A DNA stretch of 64,000 bases, taken from assembly GCF_003334305.1 (NCBI RefSeq), contig NZ_QOWS01000016.1. One strand, 5' to 3'. Below the pieces are notes generated by a model. The model saw only the letters and a list, made by a program, of their open reading frames with translations, was not told the origin of the DNA and made no database searches. Below are positions 2,653 to 20,213 of this stretch, in pieces. The DNA is from Escherichia coli. GTDB lineage: Bacteria > Pseudomonadota > Gammaproteobacteria > Enterobacterales > Enterobacteriaceae. How positions within the stretch are numbered: position 1 is the first letter of the stretch; each line of letters begins with the position of its first letter. The position numbers and the translations under genes are program-made.

Positions 2653-2682
2653 ATGCAGGCATAAAAATTGGGGGAGGTGCCT

Positions 2683-4959
2683 ATGCTCAATCAAGAACTG
2701 GAACTCAGTTTAAATATGGCTTTCGCCAGAGCGCGCGAGCACCGTCATGAGTTTATGACCGTCGAGCACTTGTTACTGGCGCTGCTCAGTAACCCATCTG
2801 CCCGGGAGGCGCTGGAAGCGTGTTCTGTGGATTTGGTTGCGCTCCGTCAGGAACTGGAAGCCTTTATTGAACAAACCACACCCGTTCTGCCTGCCAGTGA
2901 AGAGGAGCGCGACACACAGCCGACGCTGAGTTTTCAGCGTGTACTGCAACGTGCGGTCTTCCATGTCCAATCCTCCGGTCGCAATGAGGTAACCGGTGCA
3001 AACGTTCTGGTCGCTATCTTTAGCGAACAGGAGTCGCAGGCGGCATATCTGTTGCGTAAACATGAAGTCAGCCGTCTCGATGTGGTGAACTTTATCTCTC
3101 ATGGCACGCGTAAAGACGAGCCGACACAGTCTTCTGATCCTGGCAGCCAGCCAAACAGCGAAGAACTAGCTGGTGGGGAGGAACGTATGGAGAATTTCAC
3201 GACGAACCTGAATCAGCTTGCGCGCGTGGGCGGAATCGACCCACTGATTGGTCGTGAGAAGGAGCTGGAGCGTGCTATTCAGGTTCTCTGCCGTCGCCGT
3301 AAAAACAACCCGCTGCTGGTGGGGGAATCTGGTGTCGGTAAAACCGCGATTGCGGAAGGTCTTGCCTGGCGAATTGTTCAGGGCGATGTGCCGGAAGTGA
3401 TGGCTGACTGTACGATTTACTCTCTCGATATCGGTTCTCTGTTAGCGGGCACTAAATATCGCGGCGACTTTGAAAAACGTTTTAAAGCGTTGCTCAAGCA
3501 ACTGGAGCAGGACACTAACAGCATCCTGTTTATTGATGAGATCCACACCATTATCGGTGCGGGGGCAGCGTCTGGTGGCCAGGTCGATGCGGCTAACCTG
3601 ATCAAACCGTTGCTCTCCAGCGGTAAAATTCGCGTAATTGGTTCGACAACCTATCAGGAGTTCAGCAACATTTTCGAGAAAGACCGTGCTCTGGCGCGTC
3701 GCTTCCAGAAAATTGATATTACTGAACCGTCGATCGAAGAAACTGTTCAAATCATCAATGGCCTGAAACCGAAGTATGAAGCGCACCACGACGTGCGTTA
3801 TACCGCAAAAGCGGTGCGTGCAGCGGTAGAGCTGGCGGTGAAATACATTAACGATCGTCATCTGCCGGATAAAGCCATTGACGTTATCGACGAAGCGGGC
3901 GCTCGCGCACGCCTGATGCCGGTAAGCAAACGCAAGAAAACCGTTAATGTGGCGGATATTGAGTCCGTGGTGGCCCGTATTGCGCGCATTCCAGAGAAGA
4001 GTGTTTCTCAGAGTGACCGCGATACCCTGAAAAACCTCGGCGATCGCCTGAAAATGCTGGTCTTCGGTCAGGATAAAGCCATTGAGGCGCTGACTGAAGC
4101 CATTAAGATGGCGCGTGCAGGTTTAGGTCACGAACATAAACCGGTTGGTTCGTTCCTGTTTGCCGGCCCTACCGGGGTCGGGAAAACAGAGGTGACGGTA
4201 CAGCTTTCGAAAGCGTTGGGCATTGAGCTGCTGCGCTTTGATATGTCCGAGTATATGGAACGCCATACCGTCAGCCGTCTGATTGGTGCGCCTCCGGGAT
4301 ACGTTGGTTTTGATCAGGGAGGTTTGCTGACTGATGCGGTCATCAAGCATCCACATGCGGTGCTGTTGCTGGACGAAATCGAGAAAGCGCATCCGGACGT
4401 GTTCAATATTCTGTTGCAGGTGATGGACAACGGTACGCTGACCGATAACAACGGACGCAAAGCGGACTTCCGTAACGTGGTGCTGGTGATGACCACCAAC
4501 GCCGGGGTACGTGAAACTGAGCGTAAATCCATTGGTCTTATCCACCAGGATAACAGCACCGATGCGATGGAGGAGATCAAGAAGATCTTTACACCGGAAT
4601 TCCGTAACCGTCTCGACAACATTATCTGGTTTGATCATCTGTCAACCGACGTGATCCATCAGGTGGTGGATAAATTCATCGTCGAGTTGCAGGTTCAGCT
4701 GGATCAGAAAGGTGTTTCTCTGGAAGTGAGCCAGGAAGCGCGTAACTGGCTGGCCGAGAAAGGTTACGACCGGGCAATGGGCGCACGTCCGATGGCGCGT
4801 GTCATCCAGGACAACCTGAAAAAACCGCTCGCCAACGAACTGCTGTTTGGTTCGCTGGTGGACGGCGGTCAGGTCACCGTCGCGCTGGATAAAGAGAAAA
4901 ATGAGCTGACTTACGGATTCCAGAGTGCACAAAAGCACAAGGCGGAAGCAGCGCATTAA
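2683..4959 (+). CDS. clpA: clpA, ATP-dependent Clp protease ATP-binding subunit (758 aa)
   Basis: ORF track 2668..4959; start trimmed to ATG 2683 ([10 protein letters not shown]) preceded by GGGGAGG SD; two AAA+ modules with Walker A GESGVGKT and GPTGVGKT. Confidence 0.96.
3176..3189 (+). promoter_or_regulatory. Internal ribosome-binding site plus in-frame ATG (Met169) inside clpA, consistent with internal initiation giving the shorter ClpA form
   Basis: GGAGG at 3176-3180 followed 6 nt later by in-frame ATG at 3187-3189 (…[11 protein letters not shown]…). Confidence 0.5.
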
Positions 4960-4984
4960 TCTGATTGTTAGGTAGGTTGGTCAA

Positions 4985-5020
4985 GTCCGTAATCTCGAAA
5001 GAGGTTACGGACTTTTTGTT
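4985..5020 (+). terminator. Rho-independent terminator downstream of clpA
   Basis: GTCCGTAATCTC-GAAA-GAGGTTACGGAC hairpin followed by TTTTTGTT. Confidence 0.75.
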
Positions 5021-5171
5021 TATGGGGTGGAGGAGGTTCAGACCCTTTTTTTAATGATGATGGTAAGTTGTTGATAATTAGTGCTGCGGGAAGGTAAGGA
5101 TAAAAAAGGGTGCTGCAGGAGAATGGGATGGTTTTGCTTTATTAACAACGGGCTAAACGTGTAGTATTTGA

Positions 5172-5259
5172 GTTCACTGCCGTACAGGCAGCTTAGAAAT
5201 CGACGGGGTGCGGTAAAACCTTTGCGAACGCGTTCACTGCCGTACAGACAGATAAAATG
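5172..5259 (+). CRISPR. Orphan type I-F CRISPR remnant: 2 repeats flanking one 32-nt spacer, no cas genes in window
   Basis: Repeat 1 5172-5199 GTTCACTGCCGTACAGGCAGCTTAGAAA (canonical I-F repeat); spacer 5200-5231; repeat 2 5232-5259 GTTCACTGCCGTACAGACAGATAAAATG (22/28 identical, degenerate terminal repeat). Confidence 0.85.
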
Positions 5260-5291
5260 CGAAAAAAAAGCTCGCACTTTCGTACGAGCTC
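5260..5291 (-). terminator. Terminator of serW tRNA gene
   Basis: Hairpin AGCTCGCAC-TTTC-GTACGAGCT at 5268-5291 with the A8 run 5260-5267 (U-tract on minus strand), immediately 3' of the tRNA. Confidence 0.6.
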
Positions 5292-5302
5292 TTCTTTAAA
5301 TA

Positions 5303-5390
5303 TGGCGGTGAGGGGGGGATTCGAACCCCCGATACGTTGCCGTATACACACTTTCCAGGCGTGCTCCTTCAGCCACTCGGACACCTCACC
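5303..5390 (-). tRNA. serW: tRNA-Ser (anticodon GGA), CCA encoded
   Basis: Minus-strand read GGTGAGGTGTCCGAGTGGCTGAAGGAGCACGCCTGGAAAGTG…GGTTCGAATCCCCCCCTCACCGCCA; long variable arm typical of tRNA-Ser. Confidence 0.95.
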
Positions 5391-5574
5391 AAATTGTTTT
5401 GCTACCAAACCTCATGGGTGGCAACGGGGCGCTACTATAGGGAGTTGGAGTAAAACGGTCAAGAAGAATTTTAATGATAATTATTGTTTGCTCATACTGT
5501 AAACAAGTTGTGCAGTATATCTACATCGAGACAAGTTACGGACTTATACTTCCAAAGTACTTCATACATATCAC

Positions 5575-5604
5575 AAAATAAAAAGGCCGGTTAAACCGAC
5601 CTTT
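5575..5604 (-). terminator. Terminator downstream of infA
   Basis: Hairpin GGCCGGTT-TAAA-CCGACC (with G-U pairs at RNA level) followed on minus strand by a U-tract (plus-strand AAAATAAAAA). Confidence 0.55.
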
Positions 5605-5643
5605 TACTCGTTCTTTCTCTTCGCCCATCAGGCGGTAAAACAA

Positions 5644-5865
<222 letters not shown>

Positions 5866-6146: not shown

Positions 6147-6851
6147 TCATTCTTGTGGTGAAAACAAGCATCGTGGTACCCAGAAATTATTCGGCAATCG
6201 TCCGAGGCGCATTTGATTGAGATAATTAAGGTAATCCCGGCGGGGAATTTCGCAGGCACCAAGCGATGCTGTGTGATCGTTAAGGACCTGGCAGTCGATA
6301 AGCTTACCGCCATGACCGATAAATTCCTCACAGAATACCAGAAGCGCCGTTTTAGACGCATTTTCCATCCGGCTGAACATGGACTCGCCACAAAATAGCG
6401 TTCCCTGGGCCACGCCGTACATACCGCCGACAAGCTCATCTTCACGCCAGACTTCAATGGAGTGGGCATGGCCGAGTTCGTGAAGGCGATGGTAGGCTTC
6501 GACCACGCCACGCGTGATCCAGGTTCCTTCTTCGCGATCGCTGGCACAGCCTTCAATGACCTGACCAAAAGCGTAATTCATCGTGACACGATAGGGCGAG
6601 CGTTTATGAAATCGCTTCATACTACGGCTGATATGCAGTGATTCTGGCCATAGCACCGCGCGGGGATCGGGCGACCACCAGAGGATGGGGTCGCCTGGAG
6701 AAAACCACGGAAAAATACCACGCTGGTAAGCCATTAACAGGCGCGCAGGGCTAAGATCGCCCCCAAGTGCCAGCAGGCCGTTAGGCTCACGTAATGCGCC
6801 TTCCGGGGAAGGGAAGGCTATTGAATGGCGAGAAAGCTGAACCAGGCGCAT
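6147..6851 (-). CDS. aat: aat, leucyl/phenylalanyl-tRNA--protein transferase (234 aa)
   Basis: ORF 6147..6851; protein [50 protein letters not shown]; synteny infA-aat-cydC. Confidence 0.93.
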
Positions 6852-6892
6852 GACCGCAAAACTCCACGCAAGTCGGATCGTTCAATAATAGC

Positions 6893-8614
6893 TTACAAAC
6901 CCTGCTTGAACTGGTAATAACGCCCCTGTCTGGCAAGCAGCTCTGCGTGAGTACCTTGCTCAATAATTTGCCCGTTGTCCATCACTATTATTTGTTGGAA
7001 ACGAGAGAGTCCGCGAAGTCGATGGGTGACCATTAACACCGTTTTCTCACGCATCATTTCTGCAAGCAATTCAAGGATCTGGCTTTCGGTTGTGGCATCT
7101 AAGCCTTCGGTAGGTTCATCCAGCAACACCAGTGGCGCATCATGTAACAGCGCACGGGCGATAGCCAGACGGCGCAGTTCACCACCGGAGAGCTGGCGTC
7201 CGCCTTCACCTAACCAACTGTTGAGACCTGCATCCTCGAGCAGCTTCTCCAGGCCAACGCGACGCAAGCTCTCCGCCAGAGCCTCATCACTACTGCCAGG
7301 CGAGGCGAGTAACAGATTATCACGCAGCGTGGCGCTAAACAGATGCACTCGCTGAGGAACAACGCTGATGGTCTGTCGTAGAGCCGCTTCATTCAGGCTG
7401 GCTATGGGGCTATCGTTAAGCAAAATCTCGCCCTGTTGCGGGTCCCAAGCGCGGGTCAGCAGTTGTAACAGTGTTGATTTGCCGCATCCGGTTCGCCCGA
7501 GAATCGCAATATGTTCCCCGGCGTTTACCTGAAGAGAAATCCCTTTAAGTGCCTGTTGGGATTGCTCCGGATAAGTGAACTGAACATCCCGTAATGTCAG
7601 CGAAACGCGATCGGCAACACGAGTTTGGGTATCAGGGAAGGTGACTTCCGGTTTTTGATCCGTTAAATCAGTGATCCGAACGGCAGAGGCAATGACTTGC
7701 CCCAGATGCTGAAATGCACCCGTTACTGGTGCCAGTGCTTCAAACGCGGCTAACGCGCAGAAGACAAACAGGGCAATTAACGCGCCGGGTTGAGCATTGC
7801 CGCCAACGCCGCCAGACGCCATCCACAGCATCAGGATCACCGCTAACGCGCCAATGAGTAGCATTATCGCTTGCGACAATGCGGTCAGTTCAGATTGACG
7901 GCGTTGCGCTTCCAGCCATTGAATTTCTGTATTCTCTAGTTGCGTGCGATAACGATCGCTGGCACCAAAAATGGTCAGCTCAGCTTGCCCTTGCAGCCAG
8001 GCCGTCAGTTGTTGGCGATACTGTCCGCGAAGATGAGTCAGATTTTGCCCGGTGCTTTTTCCCGCACGATAAAACAGCGGTGGCATCAGGAAAAGCGTCA
8101 GTAACATAATGCCGCCCAGCGTAAAGGCGAGGGTGAAATCAAGGAAACTTAACCCGATTGTCACCACCATAATCACCACAAAAGCGCCCACCAGCGGCGA
8201 GATAACGCGCAGATAAAGATGATCGAGCGTATCAACATCCGCCACCACGCGATTGAGCAATTCGCCCTGACGATAGCGCGCCAGTCCGGCAGGGGAGAGG
8301 GGCAGCAATTTGCTGAAGGTGTAAATGCGCAGATGCTGCAACACGCGGAAAGTCGCGTCGTGACTTACCAGACGTTCAAAATAACGCCCGGCAGTACGGG
8401 TGATTGCTGCGCCACGCACGCCCGCAGCGGGTAGCATATAGTTGAAGCTGTACAGTCCGGCAACCCCCGCAACCGCTGAGGCCGAGAGGAACCAGCCGGA
8501 AAGTGTCAACAGACCGATACTGGCGAGCAGCGTGACAATTGCCAGCACGATACCAAGACTTAACATCCATTTATGACGTTTATACAGTGCCAGATAGGGT
8601 AGCAAAGCGCGCAT
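6893..8614 (-). CDS. cydC: cydC, glutathione/cysteine ABC exporter subunit (573 aa)
   Basis: N-terminal 6-TM domain plus ABC ATPase (GRTGCGKST Walker A, LSGGE signature); stop of cydD abuts start. Confidence 0.95.
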   Translation of the reverse strand: MRALLPYLALYKRHKWMLSLGIVLAIVTLLASIGLLTLSGWFLSASAVAGVAGLYSFNYMLPAAGVRGAAITRTAGRYFERLVSHDATFRVLQHLRIYTFSKLLPLSPAGLARYRQGELLNRVVADVDTLDHLYLRVISPLVGAFVVIMVVTIGLSFLDFTLAFTLGGIMLLTLFLMPPLFYRAGKSTGQNLTHLRGQYRQQLTAWLQGQAELTIFGASDRYRTQLENTEIQWLEAQRRQSELTALSQAIMLLIGALAVILMLWMASGGVGGNAQPGALIALFVFCALAAFEALAPVTGAFQHLGQVIASAVRITDLTDQKPEVTFPDTQTRVADRVSLTLRDVQFTYPEQSQQALKGISLQVNAGEHIAILGRTGCGKSTLLQLLTRAWDPQQGEILLNDSPIASLNEAALRQTISVVPQRVHLFSATLRDNLLLASPGSSDEALAESLRRVGLEKLLEDAGLNSWLGEGGRQLSGGELRRLAIARALLHDAPLVLLDEPTEGLDATTESQILELLAEMMREKTVLMVTHRLRGLSRFQQIIVMDNGQIIEQGTHAELLARQGRYYQFKQGL

Positions 8615-10381
8615 TTAAATCTCCTCCTGACGATGGGCCAGTAATGTGGCGAATGGGCCACCAGCCACACTTAATTCCGCGTAACGTCCTTGCTCAATAA
8701 TCCGGCCATCCTGCATAACCCAAATGACATCCCAGTCAGCAAGATCTTCTAACTGGTGGGTGACCATTAACGTTGTCTGGCGCAGAGAGGCGGCATTCAG
8801 CGCCTCCATTACGCGCTGTTCACTGTGAGCATCAAGGCTGGCAGCGGGTTCATCCAACAGTAATAGCGAACAGGGATTTAGTAACGCACGGGCCACCGCC
8901 ACGCGCTGCGCCTGCCCCACGGAAAGGCGGGCAGCCTGGTCGCCAACAGGCGTATCAACGCCTTGTGGCAGGAGCGGTAGAAACTCGCTGACCCAGGCGT
9001 TATCCAGCGCTGCTTGTAATTCTTGTTCGCTGGCATCAGGTCGCGCCAGTAGTACGTTATCCCGCAATGTTGCTGCCGGTAATTGTGGGTTTTGCCCAAC
9101 CCAGGAGAGATGTTTACGCCATGATTCTGGTGATAAATCGCGTAATTCTATCCCGTTGATTCGTAATGATCCCTGATATGAAAGAAAACCAGAAAGCGCG
9201 TTCAGCAGTGAGCTTTTACCTGAACCGCTGCGACCAACCAACACTGCACGTTGGCCTGCTGGCAAAGTAAAGTTCAGCGGTCCGGCCAGCGTTTTACCTT
9301 CCGGCGACGTGATAAACAGATCCTCGGCCTCAATGGTCACCGGATCGGTCGATGCTAATTCCGCCTCACCGCGCTGCGGATGGGCGAGCGGGGTTTCCAT
9401 AAACGTTTTCAGACTGTCAGCTGCACCAACAGCCTGGGCTTTAGCATGATAAAACGTACCGAGATCGCGCAATGGCTGGAAAAACTCTGGCGCAAGGATC
9501 AGGGCCAGAAAACCCGCAGCCAGCGTCACACCGGTATCGTAGTGACCAAAATCCAGCTCGCCGAGATAGGAAAAACCAAAGTAGACCGCCACCAGAGCAA
9601 TTGACAGCGAGGTAAAAAATTCGAGAATGCCGGAGGATAAAAACGCCAGCCGTAGCACTTCCATTGTCCGTTGGCGGAAATCTTCCGAAGCAGAACGAAT
9701 ACTTTCAATTTCAGCTTCACCACGACCAAAAATACGCAATGTTTCCATGCCGCGCAGGCGATCGAGGAAATGCCCACTTAAGCGAGCAAGAGCGAGAAAG
9801 TTACGCCGGTTAGCATCGGCAGCCCCCATCCCAACCAGCGCCATAAACAACGGAATTAACGGTGCTGTGCCCAGCAGAATGAGCGCCGCAGCCCAGTTAG
9901 AGGGGAAGATCGCCACCACAATCAGCAACGGCACCGACACTGCCAGCGCCATTTGCGGCAGGTAGCGTGCATAGTAATCATGCATATCGTCAATTTGCTC
10001 GAGTACCAACGTCGCCCAGCTCCCCGCAGGTTTACCCTGAATCCACGCTGGCCCTGCTTGTTGCAGACGGTCGAGAACCTGACGGCGGATGGCAAAGCGG
10101 ATATGCTGCCCGGCGTGATAACCCACCCGTTCGCGTAACCAGACCACCCATGCGCGCAGTACAAAGGTCAGAACCAGTAACGTAAAGGGAAGCAGCAGGG
10201 CTTCACGGGGAATATTCTCCATAATCATATGTTGCAGAATTCGCGCCATGAACCAGGCCTGGGCAATGATCAATATGCCGCTTACAAAGCCCAGCAGACG
10301 AGAAATATTCAGCCAACGTTGGGAGATGACGCTTTGCTGTTTTAACCAGCGGGTTAACTCTTTTTGACGGGATTTATTCAT
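8615..10381 (-). CDS. cydD: cydD, glutathione/cysteine ABC exporter subunit (588 aa)
   Basis: TM domain plus ABC ATPase ([14 protein letters not shown]); directly upstream of cydC on same strand. Confidence 0.95.
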   Translation of the reverse strand: MNKSRQKELTRWLKQQSVISQRWLNISRLLGFVSGILIIAQAWFMARILQHMIMENIPREALLLPFTLLVLTFVLRAWVVWLRERVGYHAGQHIRFAIRRQVLDRLQQAGPAWIQGKPAGSWATLVLEQIDDMHDYYARYLPQMALAVSVPLLIVVAIFPSNWAAALILLGTAPLIPLFMALVGMGAADANRRNFLALARLSGHFLDRLRGMETLRIFGRGEAEIESIRSASEDFRQRTMEVLRLAFLSSGILEFFTSLSIALVAVYFGFSYLGELDFGHYDTGVTLAAGFLALILAPEFFQPLRDLGTFYHAKAQAVGAADSLKTFMETPLAHPQRGEAELASTDPVTIEAEDLFITSPEGKTLAGPLNFTLPAGQRAVLVGRSGSGKSSLLNALSGFLSYQGSLRINGIELRDLSPESWRKHLSWVGQNPQLPAATLRDNVLLARPDASEQELQAALDNAWVSEFLPLLPQGVDTPVGDQAARLSVGQAQRVAVARALLNPCSLLLLDEPAASLDAHSEQRVMEALNAASLRQTTLMVTHQLEDLADWDVIWVMQDGRIIEQGRYAELSVAGGPFATLLAHRQEEI

Positions 10382-10433
10382 TGCACGCTTAGCAGGTGAG
10401 TTATCAGAATTATTTGCAGAGCAATGTTACAAC

Positions 10434-10476
10434 GGGGAAAAAATAAAGGCGACCCATAGTCGCATGGTGTCGCCTT
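10434..10476 (-). terminator. Terminator downstream of trxB
   Basis: Perfect 8-bp stem AAGGCGAC…GTCGCCTT (10446-10476) with plus-strand AAAAAAATAA immediately 5' (U-tract on minus strand). Confidence 0.65.
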
Positions 10477-10503
10477 CTTTACTTTTGTTACTGATTTGTA
10501 AAA

Positions 10504-11586
<1,083 letters not shown>

Positions 11587-12013
11587 TCAAATTCTCCCGT
11601 CATTATCACCTCTGCTACTTAAATTTCCCGCTTTATAAGCCGATTAAATGATGAATAAACGCCCCTGTTAATGAATATCTGGCATGTTGTACTAAAAATC
11701 GATGTTTTGCTTTGACAATCCCCTGGTGTTTTGCGAAAACATTCGAGGAAGAAAAAAAACAGTATTCTTATATGCGCATAACCATGCATGTAAATACCAT
11801 GTTTACCGTGCTAGTGAAATCTACGTATGGCGTGGACAGACGCCATTCGTGATGTCGATAGCTGCCACAAGGCAACGGTCTTCTCACCGTAGACCCAGGC
11901 ATTGCGCGCCGTGAATCTTCATGATTTCGGTCTATCGTGACGGGTAGCGACTCTGAACAGTGATGTTTCAGGGTCAGACAGGAGTAGGGAAGGAATACAG
12001 AGAGACAATAATA

Positions 12014-12508
12014 ATGGTAGATAGCAAGAAGCGCCCTGGCAAAGATCTCGACCGTATCGATCGTAACATTCTTAATGAGTTGCAAAAGGATGGGCGTATT
12101 TCTAACGTCGAGCTTTCTAAACGTGTGGGACTTTCCCCAACGCCGTGCCTTGAGCGTGTGCGTCGGCTGGAAAGACAAGGGTTTATTCAGGGCTATACGG
12201 CGCTGCTTAACCCCCATTATCTGGATGCATCACTTCTGGTATTCGTTGAGATTACTCTGAATCGTGGCGCACCGGATGTGTTTGAACAATTCAATACCGC
12301 TGTACAAAAACTTGAAGAAATTCAGGAGTGTCATTTAGTATCTGGTGATTTCGACTACCTGTTGAAAACACGCGTGCCGGATATGTCAGCTTACCGTAAG
12401 TTGCTGGGGGAAACCCTGCTGCGTCTGCCTGGCGTCAATGACACACGGACATACGTTGTTATGGAAGAAGTCAAGCAGAGTAATCGTCTGGTTATTAAGA
12501 CGCGCTAA
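12014..12508 (+). CDS. lrp: lrp, leucine-responsive regulatory protein (164 aa)
   Basis: ORF track 11960..12508 trimmed to MVDSKKRPGKDLDRIDRNILNELQKDGRISNVELSKRVGLSPTPCLERVRRLE (AsnC/Lrp HTH). Confidence 0.95.
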   Translation: MVDSKKRPGKDLDRIDRNILNELQKDGRISNVELSKRVGLSPTPCLERVRRLERQGFIQGYTALLNPHYLDASLLVFVEITLNRGAPDVFEQFNTAVQKLEEIQECHLVSGDFDYLLKTRVPDMSAYRKLLGETLLRLPGVNDTRTYVVMEEVKQSNRLVIKTR

Positions 12509-12546
12509 CACGGAACAGGTGCAAAATCGGCGTATTTTGATTACAC

Positions 12547-12566
12547 TCCTGTTAATCCATACAGCA
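12547..12566. promoter_or_regulatory. Candidate LexA (SOS) box upstream of ftsK
   Basis: tcCTGttaatccataCAGca fits CTG-N10-CAG; about 80 bp upstream of the ftsK TTG start. Confidence 0.45.
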
Positions 12567-12642
12567 ACAGTACTGGGGTAACCTGGTACTGTTGTCCGTT
12601 TTAGCATCGGGCAGGAAAAGCCTGTAACCTGGAGAGCCTTTC

Positions 12643-15600
12643 TTGAGCCAGGAATACACTGAAGACAAAGAAGTCACATTGACAAAGTTAAGTAGCGGCC
12701 GTCGCCTTCTGGAAGCGTTGCTGATCCTTATTGTCCTGTTTGCCGTCTGGTTGATGGCTGCCTTACTAAGCTTTAACCCTTCGGACCCCAGCTGGTCGCA
12801 AACGGCCTGGCATGAACCTATCCATAATTTAGGTGGGATGCCCGGTGCGTGGCTGGCAGATACGCTGTTCTTTATTTTTGGCGTGATGGCTTACACCATT
12901 CCCGTCATTATTGTCGGCGGTTGTTGGTTTGCCTGGCGTCATCAGTCCAGTGACGAATACATTGATTATTTTGCCGTTTCGCTACGCATCATTGGCGTTT
13001 TGGCGCTCATCCTTACCTCCTGTGGTCTGGCGGCAATCAACGCTGACGATATCTGGTATTTTGCCTCCGGTGGCGTCATTGGCAGCTTACTAAGCACTAC
13101 GCTACAACCACTGCTACACAGTAGCGGGGGAACTATTGCGCTGCTCTGCGTTTGGGCTGCGGGCCTGACGCTGTTCACCGGTTGGTCATGGGTGACCATT
13201 GCTGAAAAACTCGGCGGCTGGATTTTAAACATTCTCACCTTCGCCAGTAATCGTACCCGTCGCGATGATACCTGGGTCGATGAAGATGAATATGAAGATG
13301 ACGAAGAGTATGAAGATGAAAACCACGGCAAACAGCATGAATCACGCCGTGCCCGTATTCTTCGCGGCGCGCTAGCGCGTCGTAAACGGTTGGCGGAAAA
13401 ATTCATTAATCCGATGGGGCGGCAAACAGACGCTGCGTTGTTCTCCGGTAAGCGGATGGATGATGACGAAGAGATTATCTACACTGCACGCGGTGTGGCT
13501 GCCGACCCGGACGACGTCCTATTTTCGGGCAATCGTGCAACGCAGCCAGAATATGACGAATACGATCCATTATTAAACGGTGCGCCAATTACCGAACCTG
13601 TCGCTGTAGCAGCTGCTGCTACCACGGCGACACAAAGCTGGGCTGCGCCGGTTGAACCTGTGACTCAGACGCCGCCTGTTGCCTCTGTTGATGTTCCACC
13701 TTCGCAACCTACAGTAGCCTGGCAGCCTGTACCGGGTCCACAAACGGGAGAGCCGGTTATTGCTCCTGCACCGGAAGGTTACCCACAGCAGTCACAATAT
13801 GCGCAGCCTGCAGTGCAATATAATGAGCCGCTGCAACAACCAGTACAGCCGCAGCAGCCGTATTATGCACCTGCAGCTGAACAACCTGCGCAACAACCTT
13901 ACTACGCTCCTGCGGCGGAACAACCTGTTCAGCAACCGTATTACGCCCCTGCGCCAGAACAACCGGTGGCAGGTAACGCCTGGCAAGCCGAAGAGCAGCA
14001 ATCCACTTTTGCTCCACAGTCTACATACCAGACTGAGCAAACTTATCAGCAACCAGCCGCTCAGGAGCCGTTGTACCAACAGCCGCAATCCGTTGAACAG
14101 CAGCCTGTTGTGGAGCCTGAACCCGTTGTAGAAGAGACAAAACCCGCGCGTCCGCCGCTTTACTATTTTGAAGAAGTGGAAGAGAAGCGAGCCCGTGAAC
14201 GTGAACAACTTGCGGCCTGGTATCAACCGATTCCAGAACCGGTTAAAGAACCAGAACCGATCAAATCTTCGTTGAAAGCGCCTTCTGTTGCAGCAGTACC
14301 TCCAGTAGAAGCCGCTGCCGCTGTTTCTCCGCTGGCATCTGGCGTGAAAAAAGCGACACTGGCGACGGGGGCTGCCGCAACCGTTGCCGCGCCAGTCTTC
14401 AGTCTGGCAAATAGCGGTGGACCGCGTCCGCAAGTCAAAGAGGGGATTGGCCCGCAGTTGCCACGACCGAAACGTATCCGCGTGCCAACTCGTCGTGAAC
14501 TGGCGTCTTACGGTATTAAGCTGCCCTCACAGCGTGCGGCGGAAGAGAAAGCCCGTGAAGCCCAGCGCAATCAGTATGATTCTGGCGATCAGTATAACGA
14601 TGATGAAATCGATGCGATGCAGCAGGATGAACTGGCACGTCAGTTCGCCCAGACACAGCAGCAACGCTATGGCGAACAGTATCAACATGATGTGCCCGTA
14701 AACGCAGAAGATGCAGATGCTGCGGCAGAGGCTGAACTGGCTCGTCAGTTTGCGCAAACTCAACAACAACGTTATTCCGGCGAACAACCGGCTGGGGCGA
14801 ATCCGTTCTCGCTGGATGATTTTGAATTTTCGCCAATGAAAGCGTTGCTGGATGATGGTCCACACGAACCGTTGTTTACGCCAATTGTTGAACCTGTACA
14901 GCAGCCGCAACAACCGGTTGCACCGCAGCAGCAGTATCAGCAGCCGCAACAACCAGTTCCGCCACAGCAGCAATATCAGCAGCCGCAACAGCCGGTTGCG
15001 CCGCAGCCGCAGTATCAGCAGCCACAACAGCAGGTTGCGCCGCAGCCACAATATCAGCAGCCGCAACAACCGGTTGCGCCACAGCCGCAATATCAGCAGC
15101 CGCAACAACCAGTTGCGCCGCAGCCGCAGTATCAACAGCCGCAACAACCGGTTGCACCGCAGCAGCAGGATACCCTGCTTCATCCGCTGTTGATGCGTAA
15201 TGGCGACAGCCGTCCGTTGCATAAACCGACGACGCCGCTGCCTTCTCTGGATTTGCTGACACCGCCGCCGAGCGAAGTGGAGCCGGTAGATACCTTTGCG
15301 CTTGAACAAATGGCTCGCCTGGTGGAAGCGCGTCTGGCTGATTTCCGTATTAAAGCCGATGTCGTCAATTACTCTCCGGGGCCGGTTATCACTCGCTTTG
15401 AACTTAACCTGGCTCCTGGCGTAAAAGCGGCGCGCATTTCTAACTTGTCACGGGACCTTGCCCGTTCACTTTCGACGGTGGCGGTGCGTGTCGTTGAAGT
15501 TATTCCTGGCAAACCCTATGTAGGTCTGGAGTTACCAAATAAAAAACGACAAACCGTTTATCTGCGCGAAGTTTTGGATAACGCCAAATTCCGCGATAAT

Positions 15601-16710
15601 CCGTCGCCATTAACCGTGGTGCTGGGTAAAGATATCGCCGGTGAGCCGGTGGTTGCCGATCTGGCGAAAATGCCGCACTTGTTGGTTGCGGGGACTACCG
15701 GTTCCGGTAAATCTGTCGGTGTGAACGCGATGATCCTGAGCATGCTTTATAAAGCACAGCCAGAAGATGTGCGTTTCATCATGATCGACCCGAAAATGCT
15801 GGAGCTTTCGGTTTATGAAGGCATTCCGCATCTGTTAACGGAAGTCGTTACTGATATGAAAGATGCCGCCAACGCGCTGCGCTGGTGTGTTAACGAGATG
15901 GAGCGTCGGTATAAACTGATGTCTGCGCTGGGTGTGCGTAATCTGGCGGGTTATAACGAAAAAATTGCTGAAGCCGATCGCATGATGCGTCCGATTCCAG
16001 ACCCGTACTGGAAGCCGGGTGACAGTATGGATGCCCAGCATCCGGTGCTGAAAAAAGAACCATACATTGTGGTGTTGGTTGACGAATTTGCCGACCTGAT
16101 GATGACGGTAGGTAAAAAAGTGGAAGAGCTGATAGCACGTCTGGCGCAAAAAGCCCGTGCCGCGGGTATCCACCTCGTACTGGCAACTCAGCGTCCATCG
16201 GTTGATGTTATTACTGGTCTGATTAAAGCGAATATTCCGACCCGTATCGCCTTTACCGTATCCAGTAAGATTGACTCACGTACCATTCTTGATCAGGCTG
16301 GCGCGGAATCACTGCTGGGGATGGGGGATATGCTCTACTCTGGGCCGAACTCCACGTTGCCGGTACGTGTCCATGGTGCTTTTGTTCGCGATCAGGAAGT
16401 TCATGCCGTGGTGCAGGACTGGAAAGCGCGTGGTCGCCCACAGTATGTTGATGGCATCACTTCCGACAGTGAAAGCGAAGGTGGCGCGGGCGGTTTCGAT
16501 GGCGCTGAAGAACTGGATCCGTTGTTCGATCAGGCGGTGCAGTTTGTCACTGAAAAACGCAAAGCGTCAATTTCTGGCGTACAGCGTCAGTTCCGCATTG
16601 GTTATAACCGTGCAGCGCGTATTATCGAACAGATGGAAGCGCAGGGGATTGTCAGCGAACAGGGGCACAACGGTAATCGTGAAGTGCTGGCCCCACCGCC
16701 GTTTGACTAA
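12643..16710 (+). CDS. ftsK: ftsK, DNA translocase (1355 aa as encoded here; TTG start)
   Basis: ORF 12643..16710 starts at TTG with protein [27 protein letters not shown]; N-terminal TM domain, Pro/Gln-rich repetitive linker, C-terminal motor with Walker A GTTGSGKS. Confidence 0.95.
14899..15171 (+). repeat. In-frame 39-bp tandem repeat (7 copies, last one degenerate) encoding [13 protein letters not shown] units in the FtsK linker
   Basis: Copies at 14899, 14938, 14977, 15016, 15055, 15094, 15133; unit cagcagccgcaacaaccggttgcgccgcagccgcagtat with point variation. Confidence 0.9.
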
Positions 16711-16718
16711 TTAATGCA

Positions 16719-16753
16719 TTGCCGGATAAGGCGCGGTAGCGTCGCATCCGGCA
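16719..16753. repeat. REP (repetitive extragenic palindromic) element between ftsK and lolA
   Basis: TGCCGGATAAGGCGCGGTAGCGTCGCATCCGGCA, imperfect palindrome of the GCCGGATG / CATCCGGC type. Confidence 0.75.
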
Positions 16754-16864
16754 CTCTATCAACTGAAAATTCAGTATTTTCTTCTTTCCTCAAGCTGATT
16801 ATTAGCCTGGAATAGAGAGTAGAGGGAACTCCCGATCGGGAGTGACGTAATTTGAGGAATAATG

Positions 16865-17476
16865 ATGAAAAAAATTGCCATCACCTGTGCATTACTCTCA
16901 AGCTTAGTAGCAAGCAGCGTTTGGGCTGATGCCGCAAGCGATCTGAAAAGCCGCCTGGATAAAGTCAGCAGCTTCCACGCCAGCTTCACACAAAAAGTGA
17001 CTGACGGTAGCGGCGCGGCGGTGCAGGAAGGTCAGGGCGATCTGTGGGTGAAACGTCCAAACTTATTCAACTGGCATATGACACAACCTGATGAAAGCAT
17101 TCTGGTTTCTGACGGTAAAACACTGTGGTTCTATAACCCGTTCGTTGAGCAAGCTACGGCAACCTGGCTGAAAGATGCCACCGGTAATACGCCGTTTATG
17201 CTGATTGCCCGCAACCAGTCCAGCGACTGGCAGCAGTACAATATCAAACAGAATGGCGATGACTTTGTCCTGACGCCGAAAGCCAGCAATGGCAATCTGA
17301 AGCAGTTCACCATTAACGTGGGACGTGATGGCACAATCCATCAGTTTAGCGCGGTGGAGCAGGACGATCAGCGCAGCAGTTATCAACTGAAATCCCAGCA
17401 AAATGGGGCTGTGGATGCAGCGAAATTTACCTTCACCCCGCCGCAAGGCGTCACGGTAGATGATCAACGTAAGTAG
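16865..17476 (+). CDS. lolA: lolA, periplasmic lipoprotein carrier (203 aa)
   Basis: ORF 16862..17476 has tandem ATG ATG; protein [34 protein letters not shown] with signal peptide. Confidence 0.93.
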
Positions 17477-17486
17477 AGGCACCTGA

Positions 17487-18830
17487 GTGAGCAATCTGTC
17501 GCTCGATTTTTCGGATAATACTTTTCAACCTCTGGCCGCGCGTATGCGGCCAGAAAATTTAGCACAGTATATCGGCCAGCAACATTTGCTGGCTGCGGGG
17601 AAGCCGTTGCCGCGCGCTATCGAAGCCGGGCATTTACATTCTATGATCCTCTGGGGGCCACCGGGTACCGGCAAAACAACCCTCGCTGAAGTGATTGCCC
17701 GCTATGCGAACGCTGATGTGGAACGTATTTCTGCCGTCACCTCTGGCGTGAAAGAAATTCGCGAGGCGATCGAGCGCGCCCGGCAAAATCGCAATGCAGG
17801 TCGCCGCACTATTCTTTTTGTTGATGAAGTTCACCGTTTCAACAAAAGCCAGCAGGATGCATTTCTGCCACATATTGAAGACGGCACCATCACTTTTATT
17901 GGCGCAACCACTGAAAACCCGTCGTTTGAGCTTAATTCGGCACTGCTTTCCCGTGCCCGTGTCTATCTATTGAAATCCCTGAGTACAGAGGATATTGAGC
18001 AAGTACTAACTCAGGCGATGGAAGACAAAACCCGTGGCTATGGTGGTCAGGATATTGTTCTGCCAGATGAAACACGACGCGCCATTGCTGAACTGGTGAA
18101 TGGCGACGCGCGCCGGGCGTTAAATACGCTGGAAATGATGGCGGATATGGCCGAAGTCGATGATAGCGGTAAGCGGGTCCTGAAGCCTGAATTACTGACC
18201 GAAATCGCAGGTGAACGTAGCGCCCGCTTTGATAACAAAGGCGATCGCTTTTACGATCTGATTTCCGCACTGCATAAGTCGGTACGTGGTAGCGCACCCG
18301 ATGCGGCGCTCTACTGGTATGCGCGAATTATTACCGCCGGTGGCGATCCGTTATATGTCGCGCGTCGTTGCCTGGCAATTGCTTCCGAAGATGTCGGCAA
18401 TGCCGACCCACGGGCGATGCAGGTGGCAATTGCGGCCTGGGATTGCTTTACTCGCGTTGGCCCGGCGGAAGGTGAACGCGCCATTGCTCAGGCGATTGTT
18501 TACCTGGCCTGCGCGCCAAAAAGCAACGCTGTCTACACTGCGTTTAAAGCCGCGCTGGCGGATGCTCGCGAACGTCCGGATTATGACGTGCCGGTTCATT
18601 TGCGTAATGCGCCGACGAAATTAATGAAGGAAATGGGCTACGGGCAGGAATATCGTTACGCTCATGATGAAGCAAACGCTTATGCTGCCGGTGAGGTTTA
18701 CTTCCCGCCGGAAATAGCACAAACACGCTATTATTTCCCGACAAACAGGGGCCTTGAAGGCAAGATTGGCGAAAAGCTCGCCTGGCTGGCTGAACAGGAT
18801 CAAAATAGCCCCATAAAACGCTACCGTTAA
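17487..18830 (+). CDS. rarA: rarA (ycaJ), replication-associated recombination AAA+ ATPase (447 aa; GTG start)
   Basis: GTG at 17487; Walker [10 protein letters not shown], Walker [11 protein letters not shown]. Confidence 0.93.
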
Positions 18831-18899
18831 TGTTATCGTTGCGGTAATGTTGTTACTGTATCCCTGTGGTCGCAGGCTGTGGCCACATCTCCCATTTAA

Positions 18900-20213
<1,314 letters not shown>

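Follow-up and report, generated by a model that had tools for sequence, protein, structure and literature searches.

A cas-less type I-F mini-CRISPR between clpA and serW of Escherichia coli carries a single spacer against cas3f

We analyzed a 64-kb stretch of E. coli DNA (64,000 nt; 'the window' below) in which the interval between clpA and infA, the location of the CRISPR4.1-2 arrays, holds two repeats and one spacer (Table 1). The array is preceded by clpA, its terminator and an AT-rich leader, and is followed by a hairpin terminator and the tRNA gene serW, with infA farther downstream. The in-frame open reading frame over clpA spans 2668-4959. An earlier note, made from the letters of the window, had placed a perfect 28-bp type I-F repeat, a 32-nt spacer and a degenerate terminal repeat (22 of 28 positions identical) between clpA and serW, behind an AT-rich, leader-like stretch at 5040-5171. 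All of these coordinates and identities were borne out. The stretch at 5040-5171 has a GC content of 38.6%, compared with 51.1% for the window, and the AT-rich leader as a whole falls at 38.6-41%. On the minus strand, the array and tRNA gene are overlapped by two small open reading frames, 5038-5277 and 5193-5408, which we treated as spurious. PGAP calls a 'hypothetical protein' across the orphan array in some RefSeq genomes (e.g. WP_012602745.1; 306-704 of the M11957 locus, L009), and this call is probably spurious as well.

Table 1. Features of the clpA-infA interval and its flanks, in window coordinates.
Feature	Position	Strand	Remarks
clpA	2683-4959	+	upstream core gene; maps to the clpA annotation at 6280-8556 of the EC-7215 locus (L001)
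clpA intrinsic terminator	4983-5014	+	14-pair stem, then a T run (terminator scan)
CRISPR4.1 leader	5015-5171	+	AT-rich, 40% GC; identical to the EC-7215 leader
Repeat 1	5172-5199	+	exact type I-F consensus, GTTCACTGCCGTACAGGCAGCTTAGAAA; Cas6f hairpin intact
Spacer	5200-5231	+	32 nt; equals cas3f codons 425-435
Terminal repeat	5232-5259	+	degenerate, 22/28 identities to repeat 1; G17A at 5248
Predicted mature crRNA	5192-5251	+	60 nt: 8-nt 5' handle CUUAGAAA, spacer, 20-nt 3' hairpin handle; predicted from the Cas6f site, supposing that Cas6f is supplied
serW hairpin terminator	5262-5297		minus-strand terminator scan; plus-strand RNA hairpin of -9.4 kcal/mol
serW, tRNA-Ser(GGA)	5303-5390	-	ARAGORN, Rfam tRNA and K-12 annotation; downstream flank
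infA	5644-5862	-	open reading frame; far flank

Repeat 1 has the length and fold of an I-F repeat, with 28 nt, a 5-bp stem and a 5-nt loop, and it scores 50.1 bits against the Rfam family CRISPR-DR4, for which the gathering score is 35. The terminal repeat resembles an I-F repeat in part: its hairpin is weakened and it reaches 20 bits against the same family. The single spacer has the regular length of exactly 32 nt, in what is the smallest possible array. At this site the only Rfam families above threshold were tRNA and CRISPR-DR4, and the remaining matches were sub-threshold noise. Two repeats alone are weak evidence for a CRISPR. The identity of this one is certain because positions 4900-5199 of the window, from the end of clpA through the leader to the first repeat, match the corresponding stretch at a bona fide CRISPR4.1 array of an I-F-positive strain with 100% identity.

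The presence of only two copies, and the palindrome within the repeat unit, might instead suggest that the element is not a CRISPR at all and that it represents a dispersed REP-like palindrome or a chance duplication. The earlier note had named a departure from the I-F consensus, or dispersed copies of the 28-mer, as grounds for abandoning the CRISPR assignment, and neither was found. A search for GTTCACTGCCGTACAGGCAGCTTAGAAA with up to three mismatches returned a single site in the 64-kb window, namely repeat 1, and no site in 100 shuffles; the 10-12-nt cores of the repeat were likewise confined to the two array positions. REP elements occur as many dispersed copies, whereas this array occupies one locus in 64 kb and a median of one place per E. 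coli genome. Further, the CRISPR-DR4 match is above the gathering score, the spacing is exactly 32 nt, and I-F-positive strains carry a 14-repeat array behind this leader at this position. We regard the REP-like reading as refuted, with practically no probability left to it.

As a reference for the I-F locus we used E. coli strain EC-7215 (locus L001), in which the order is clpA, CRISPR, cas1f, cas3f, csy1, csy2, csy3, cas6f, serW, second CRISPR, infA. The identical segment 4900-5199 of the window corresponds to 8497-8796 of this locus, window positions 5262-5471 correspond to 18169-18378 (95.7% identity), and positions 5580-5700 align with 19796-19916. Absent from the window are 9.4 kb (8797-18168 of the EC-7215 locus), comprising the remainder of the clpA-side array and all six cas genes, and the 1.4-kb second leader and array (18379-19795, which has no counterpart). 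When the six EC-7215 I-F Cas proteins (Cas1f, Cas3f, Csy1-3 and Cas6f) were compared with the 64-kb window by tblastn, the only match better than chance was the 11-residue stretch that the spacer itself encodes. Nothing occupies the canonical cas site and no cas genes adjoin the array, which is thus an orphan and not a complete I-F system. These results agree with the earlier note, which had reported no I-F cas genes in the window and had proposed an alignment of this intergenic region with a cas-positive strain; its further statement that cas-less arrays at the clpA-serW site are established in E. coli agrees with the literature (PMC2886076). Between serW and infA, 108 nt of the window (5472-5579) have no counterpart in EC-7215, where the second CRISPR leader and array sit.

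The entire clpA-to-array intergenic region (4960-5171) is identical to the cas-associated CRISPR4.1 leader of EC-7215 (212/212 positions). With an intrinsic terminator directly behind clpA, the array needs its own promoter. We found no consensus sigma-70 promoter in the leader, and a relaxed scan yielded weak candidates only, with sigma-70-like -10 hexamers at 5073 (GATAAT) and 5162 (TAGTAT). On the other side, the hairpin that terminates serW probably also ends array transcripts.

The spacer is a 32/32 copy of a segment of cas3f (12001-12032 of the EC-7215 locus), on the same strand as the gene. Codon 425 is exactly where the match begins, and the peptide encoded is S-T-G-C-G-K-T-F-A-N; adding the alanine before it gives A-S-T-G-C-G-K-T, the Walker A motif of the Cas3f helicase, and a weak Pfam DEAD helicase match in Cas3f begins at residue 423. 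Immediately 5' of the protospacer stands CC, equivalent to GGC on the target strand, and the junction reads gCC followed by TCGACG in both cas3f allele types. For E. coli I-F the PAM has been defined as GGC, and strain LF82 showed interference with a target plasmid bearing a GGC flank (PMC3506596). Shuffled spacers never came closer than 11 mismatches to any part of the 24-kb I-F locus. Antisense control of cas3f mRNA was considered and ruled out, given that the spacer reads in the sense of this mRNA; for the same reason, a crRNA made from it could pair with DNA only.

By default, a CRISPR spacer is expected to be ordinary immune memory, and in E. coli the usual match of an I-F spacer is to a plasmid (PMC2886076). 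The spacer would then stem from a past attack, by phage or plasmid, on an ancestor with a working I-F system, and its cas3f match would be incidental; the earlier note had likewise taken it for a record of a past invader. This did not hold up. No match was found in 50,697 phage records (blastn, 11-nt words, E-value up to 10). A plasmid collection, PLSDB, gave seven full-length matches, all of them in E. coli records, four of which are 0.7-4.9 Mb long. The one we inspected (L002; NZ_CP148399.1, a 73.7-kb 'plasmid') carries chromosomal macAB, cspD, clpSA, infA, aat, cydCD and trxB together with the same array, so that its match is chromosomal clpA-infA DNA. We therefore rejected a phage or plasmid origin. 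Set against these searches, the cas3f match is perfect, lies beside a proper PAM and falls in frame on the codons for Walker A, and we consider ordinary immune memory very improbable. The exact 32-mer (with C or T at position 12) was not found beyond E. coli in one genome per GTDB species, nor was it found by full-text literature search or in the supplements of PMC2886076. As a side observation, the spacer-matching PLSDB 'plasmids' look like mislabeled pieces of chromosome, and plasmid matches to chromosomal features need checking.

The window's array is not alone in its choice of target. In K-12 MG1655, the leader, terminal repeat and downstream junction are as in the window and the spacer differs: it matches cas1f with three mismatches and a CC PAM. 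The Nissle 1917 spacer matches cas3f (one mismatch, CC). In M11957, the window's own spacer heads an orphan array of three spacers, of which the other two match cas1f (three mismatches, CC) and cas3f (no mismatches, CC). Thus, all five orphan-array spacers that we checked (window, K-12, Nissle and two from M11957) are anti-cas with a CC PAM. A terminal repeat and junction common to arrays whose spacers differ suggest either a multi-spacer ancestor that lost different spacers in different lineages or a turnover of spacers after the array had become an orphan.

We next consider how these arrays are distributed over 5426 complete E. coli genomes. Nearly all of them (5418) carry the leader and first repeat. 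The K-12-type array is found in 2338 genomes, the window type in about 1563 (1184 of which are identical over all 88 bp) and the Nissle type in about 524. The cas3f gene itself is present in 240 genomes, and in every one of these (240/240) it matches the spacer with at most one mismatch. The spacer and cas3f are distributed near-exclusively: the arithmetic of the counts leaves room for about 2 to 12 genomes with both. Among the 68 cas3f-positive genomes listed, which include all 39 with a cas3f fragment at least 99.8% identical to the EC-7215 allele, none also has the spacer, as a second copy of the 32-mer. A few cas3f-negative genomes (e.g. D1, H114, and KK05-19, H150) hold two to four separate copies of the 32-mer, for a total of 56 extra places.

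In every essential respect the window's array is that of the orphan CRISPR4.1-2 arrays, also described as 'anti-CRISPR' CRISPR3 (Touchon and Rocha, 2010, PMC2886076; Diez-Villasenor, 2010; Almendros et al., 2016, Nat Microbiol 1:16081); the name CRISPR4.1-2 comes from the Mojica laboratory and CRISPR3 from Touchon and Rocha (PMC2886076). Like them, it lies between clpA/clpS and infA/aat with no I-F cas genes beside it; the leader and 28-nt repeat are theirs, as is the conserved, altered terminal repeat, and its one spacer matches an I-F cas gene at a PAM-flanked site. The array is therefore an E. coli cas-less orphan type I-F mini-CRISPR, CRISPR4.1-2, with one anti-cas spacer against cas3f (cas2-3). 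It is of an already known type and is one of the commonest variants of the E. coli anti-cas orphan array. The earlier note had looked for novelty in the spacer content. This expectation was not sustained, given that cas-matching spacers were reported in 2010 (PMC2886076) and that anti-cas action was, according to reviews of Almendros et al., demonstrated in 2016.

Other I-F arrays resemble the window's in part. The cas-associated CRISPR4.1 arrays of EC-7215, LF82, B7A, UTI89 and S88 adjoin clpA and have an identical leader and repeat, 32-nt spacers and a degenerate last repeat, as in the window. Unlike it, they hold at least nine spacers (13 in EC-7215), mostly matching plasmids, and are followed by cas1f-cas3f-csy1-csy2-csy3-cas6f and a second array past serW. 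In Pectobacterium atrosepticum, an I-F spacer is likewise directed against the cell's own kind of DNA, and Vercoe et al. (2013; PMC3630108) describe this self-targeting as toxic and as selecting for deletions. There, the spacer is aimed at a pathogenicity island and the cell is cas-positive, whereas the target of the window's spacer is the cas operon, which is gone from this cell's locus. By analogy, toxic self-targeting of this kind offers a plausible route by which the cas operon could have been lost. Finally, isolated or orphan I-F arrays in Pseudomonas aeruginosa (CR3; PMC13142298) are usable though they lie away from, or without, the cas operon. In contrast to the window, the CR3 strain keeps its cas operon, the array works in trans, and its spacers are directed at mobile elements and are not anti-cas.

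We think it quite probable that the array acts as an anti-cas device, inert until an I-F cas operon enters the cell and then blocking its establishment by means of the spacer against cas3f. It would have arisen when I-F adaptation machinery captured a 32-nt piece of its own cas3f beside a CC PAM, in a lineage that was later left without the cas operon; such self-acquisition could itself have driven the loss of the operon by autoimmunity. The resident array would be transcribed from its own leader, and we infer that this copy is inert since the cell presumably has no Cas6f or Csy proteins. Were an expressed I-F operon to come in, its Cas6f would process the array's transcript to a crRNA of 60 nt; Cas6f/Csy4 is said, from work by Haurwitz et al. 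in 2010, to cleave after G20 of each repeat. The crRNA-loaded Csy complex would then bind the Walker-A-coding stretch of the incoming cas3f, Cas2-3 would degrade the carrier DNA, and priming would add further spacers. As a result, the I-F system would be unable to establish itself in the cell.

Several lines of evidence speak for this anti-cas reading: the identity of the repeat, leader and locus to those of a bona fide I-F array, the 32/32 match to cas3f with its PAM, the five of five anti-cas spacers, and the near-exclusive distribution. The hypothesis of an anti-cas array was first put forward by Touchon and Rocha (2010; PMC2886076). In review accounts of Almendros et al. (2016; via PMC8616872 and PMC5972030), orphan E. 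coli I-F arrays are constitutively expressed, and native orphan arrays give both interference and primed adaptation against plasmids that carry the full set of I-F cas genes. On the other hand, the terminal-repeat substitution G17A and the leader without a consensus promoter count against the anti-cas reading. So does the apparent want of a natural vector to be stopped: a 431-bp cas3f fragment used as query found no E. coli-like cas3f on PLSDB plasmids, and the plasmid-borne relatives, in Photobacterium, Acinetobacter, Psychrobacter and Salinimonas, are only about 70% identical. Moreover, an I-F operon that arrived by homologous recombination at clpA-infA would take the array's place, the sequence identity of an 88-bp element among clonal relatives does not prove selection, and the genome counts leave room for the few co-occurrences given above.

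The effect of G17A (position 5248) deserves particular attention. The hairpin of repeat 1, CUGCC-GUACA-GGCAG, folds at -8.6 kcal/mol, and in the terminal repeat G17A turns the C9-G17 pair of the Cas6f hairpin into a C·A mismatch, for which the predicted fold is -1.4 kcal/mol. Because the broken pair lies in the hairpin that Cas6f binds, 3' maturation of the crRNA and Csy assembly may be impaired in the window's lineage, as the predicted folds suggest. G17A is shared by the window-type and K-12-type arrays, with identical copies in at least 2607 genomes, or about half of E. coli; position 17 is still a G in Nissle and O55:H7.

A damaged terminal hairpin in so many genomes is what one might expect if the array were an inert fossil. 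Here, a self-targeting spacer would have led to autoimmunity and to selection for cas deletion, and the remaining leader, repeat, spacer and repeat would be functionless and kept by descent. The idea comes near to the view taken in the earlier note and to the proposal of Diez-Villasenor (2010) as quoted in PMC2886076. It draws further support from the leader, in which no consensus promoter was found, from the lack of any known plasmid-borne target, and from the deletions that chromosomal self-targeting by I-F drives (PMC3630108). Yet native orphan arrays are reported, in the reviews of Almendros et al. (2016) cited above, to be expressed and to interfere with I-F cas plasmids, and each orphan-array spacer we examined is anti-cas with a proper PAM. 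Touchon and Rocha also argue that recombination between repeats normally removes spacers fast, yet those of the orphan arrays persist (PMC2886076). We therefore judge an inert fossil to be unlikely. An autoimmune origin and a present anti-cas function are compatible with each other. The earlier note had called the array the scar of a lost or never-acquired I-F cas locus; it is indeed a cas-less I-F array, but 'scar' by itself falls short of what is known about such arrays, and 'never-acquired' clashes with a spacer derived from cas3f.

If the array is an anti-cas device, one may ask whether its spacer is a random fragment of a cas gene or a selected guide that is broad in range and hard to escape. 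In S88, the strain in which the position of the mismatch was checked, cas3f matches the spacer at 31 of 32 positions, with an intact PAM and a synonymous C-to-T difference at spacer position 12. A Cas7f thumb holds every sixth position unpaired in the Csy complex (10.1101/453720), so the mismatch at position 12 in S88 should not matter to targeting. The placement of the spacer on the Walker A codons, and the fall of this sole S88-verified difference from the commoner B2-type cas3f allele at a non-paired position, are the reasons for entertaining a selected, broad-range guide, which we put forward tentatively and think doubtful. Were it true, one resident crRNA would cover both main E. coli cas3f allele types.

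These results change nothing that is known about such arrays; they provide a clean instance of an array that is kept without cas genes and is aimed at cas genes, and anti-cas arrays help to explain the absence of I-F from most E. coli. For annotation, the element is best labeled an orphan I-F (CRISPR4.1-2) anti-cas array against cas3f, not a record of phage immunity, and the overlapping minus-strand reading frames should not be entered as genes.

The neighborhood of serW also varies among strains. In some strains (M11957, 401-830 of locus L009; MIN14, 862-997 of locus L008), the three-spacer array is followed by a degenerate second copy of the 3' end of serW with its terminator and by about 130 nt of inserted sequence ahead of the true serW; in MIN14, PGAP places an 'RtT sRNA' at the corresponding position. 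The duplicate and insert look like the footprint of an element that uses serW as its attachment site. The first 25 kb of the window are 100% identical to several E. coli chromosomes. In E. coli DETEC-E601 (NZ_CP116176.1, 1643854-1679552), positions 1-25000 of the window align as two pieces spread over 35.7 kb, which implies an insertion of about 10.7 kb that includes a 'DNA primase family protein' and may be an island at serW.
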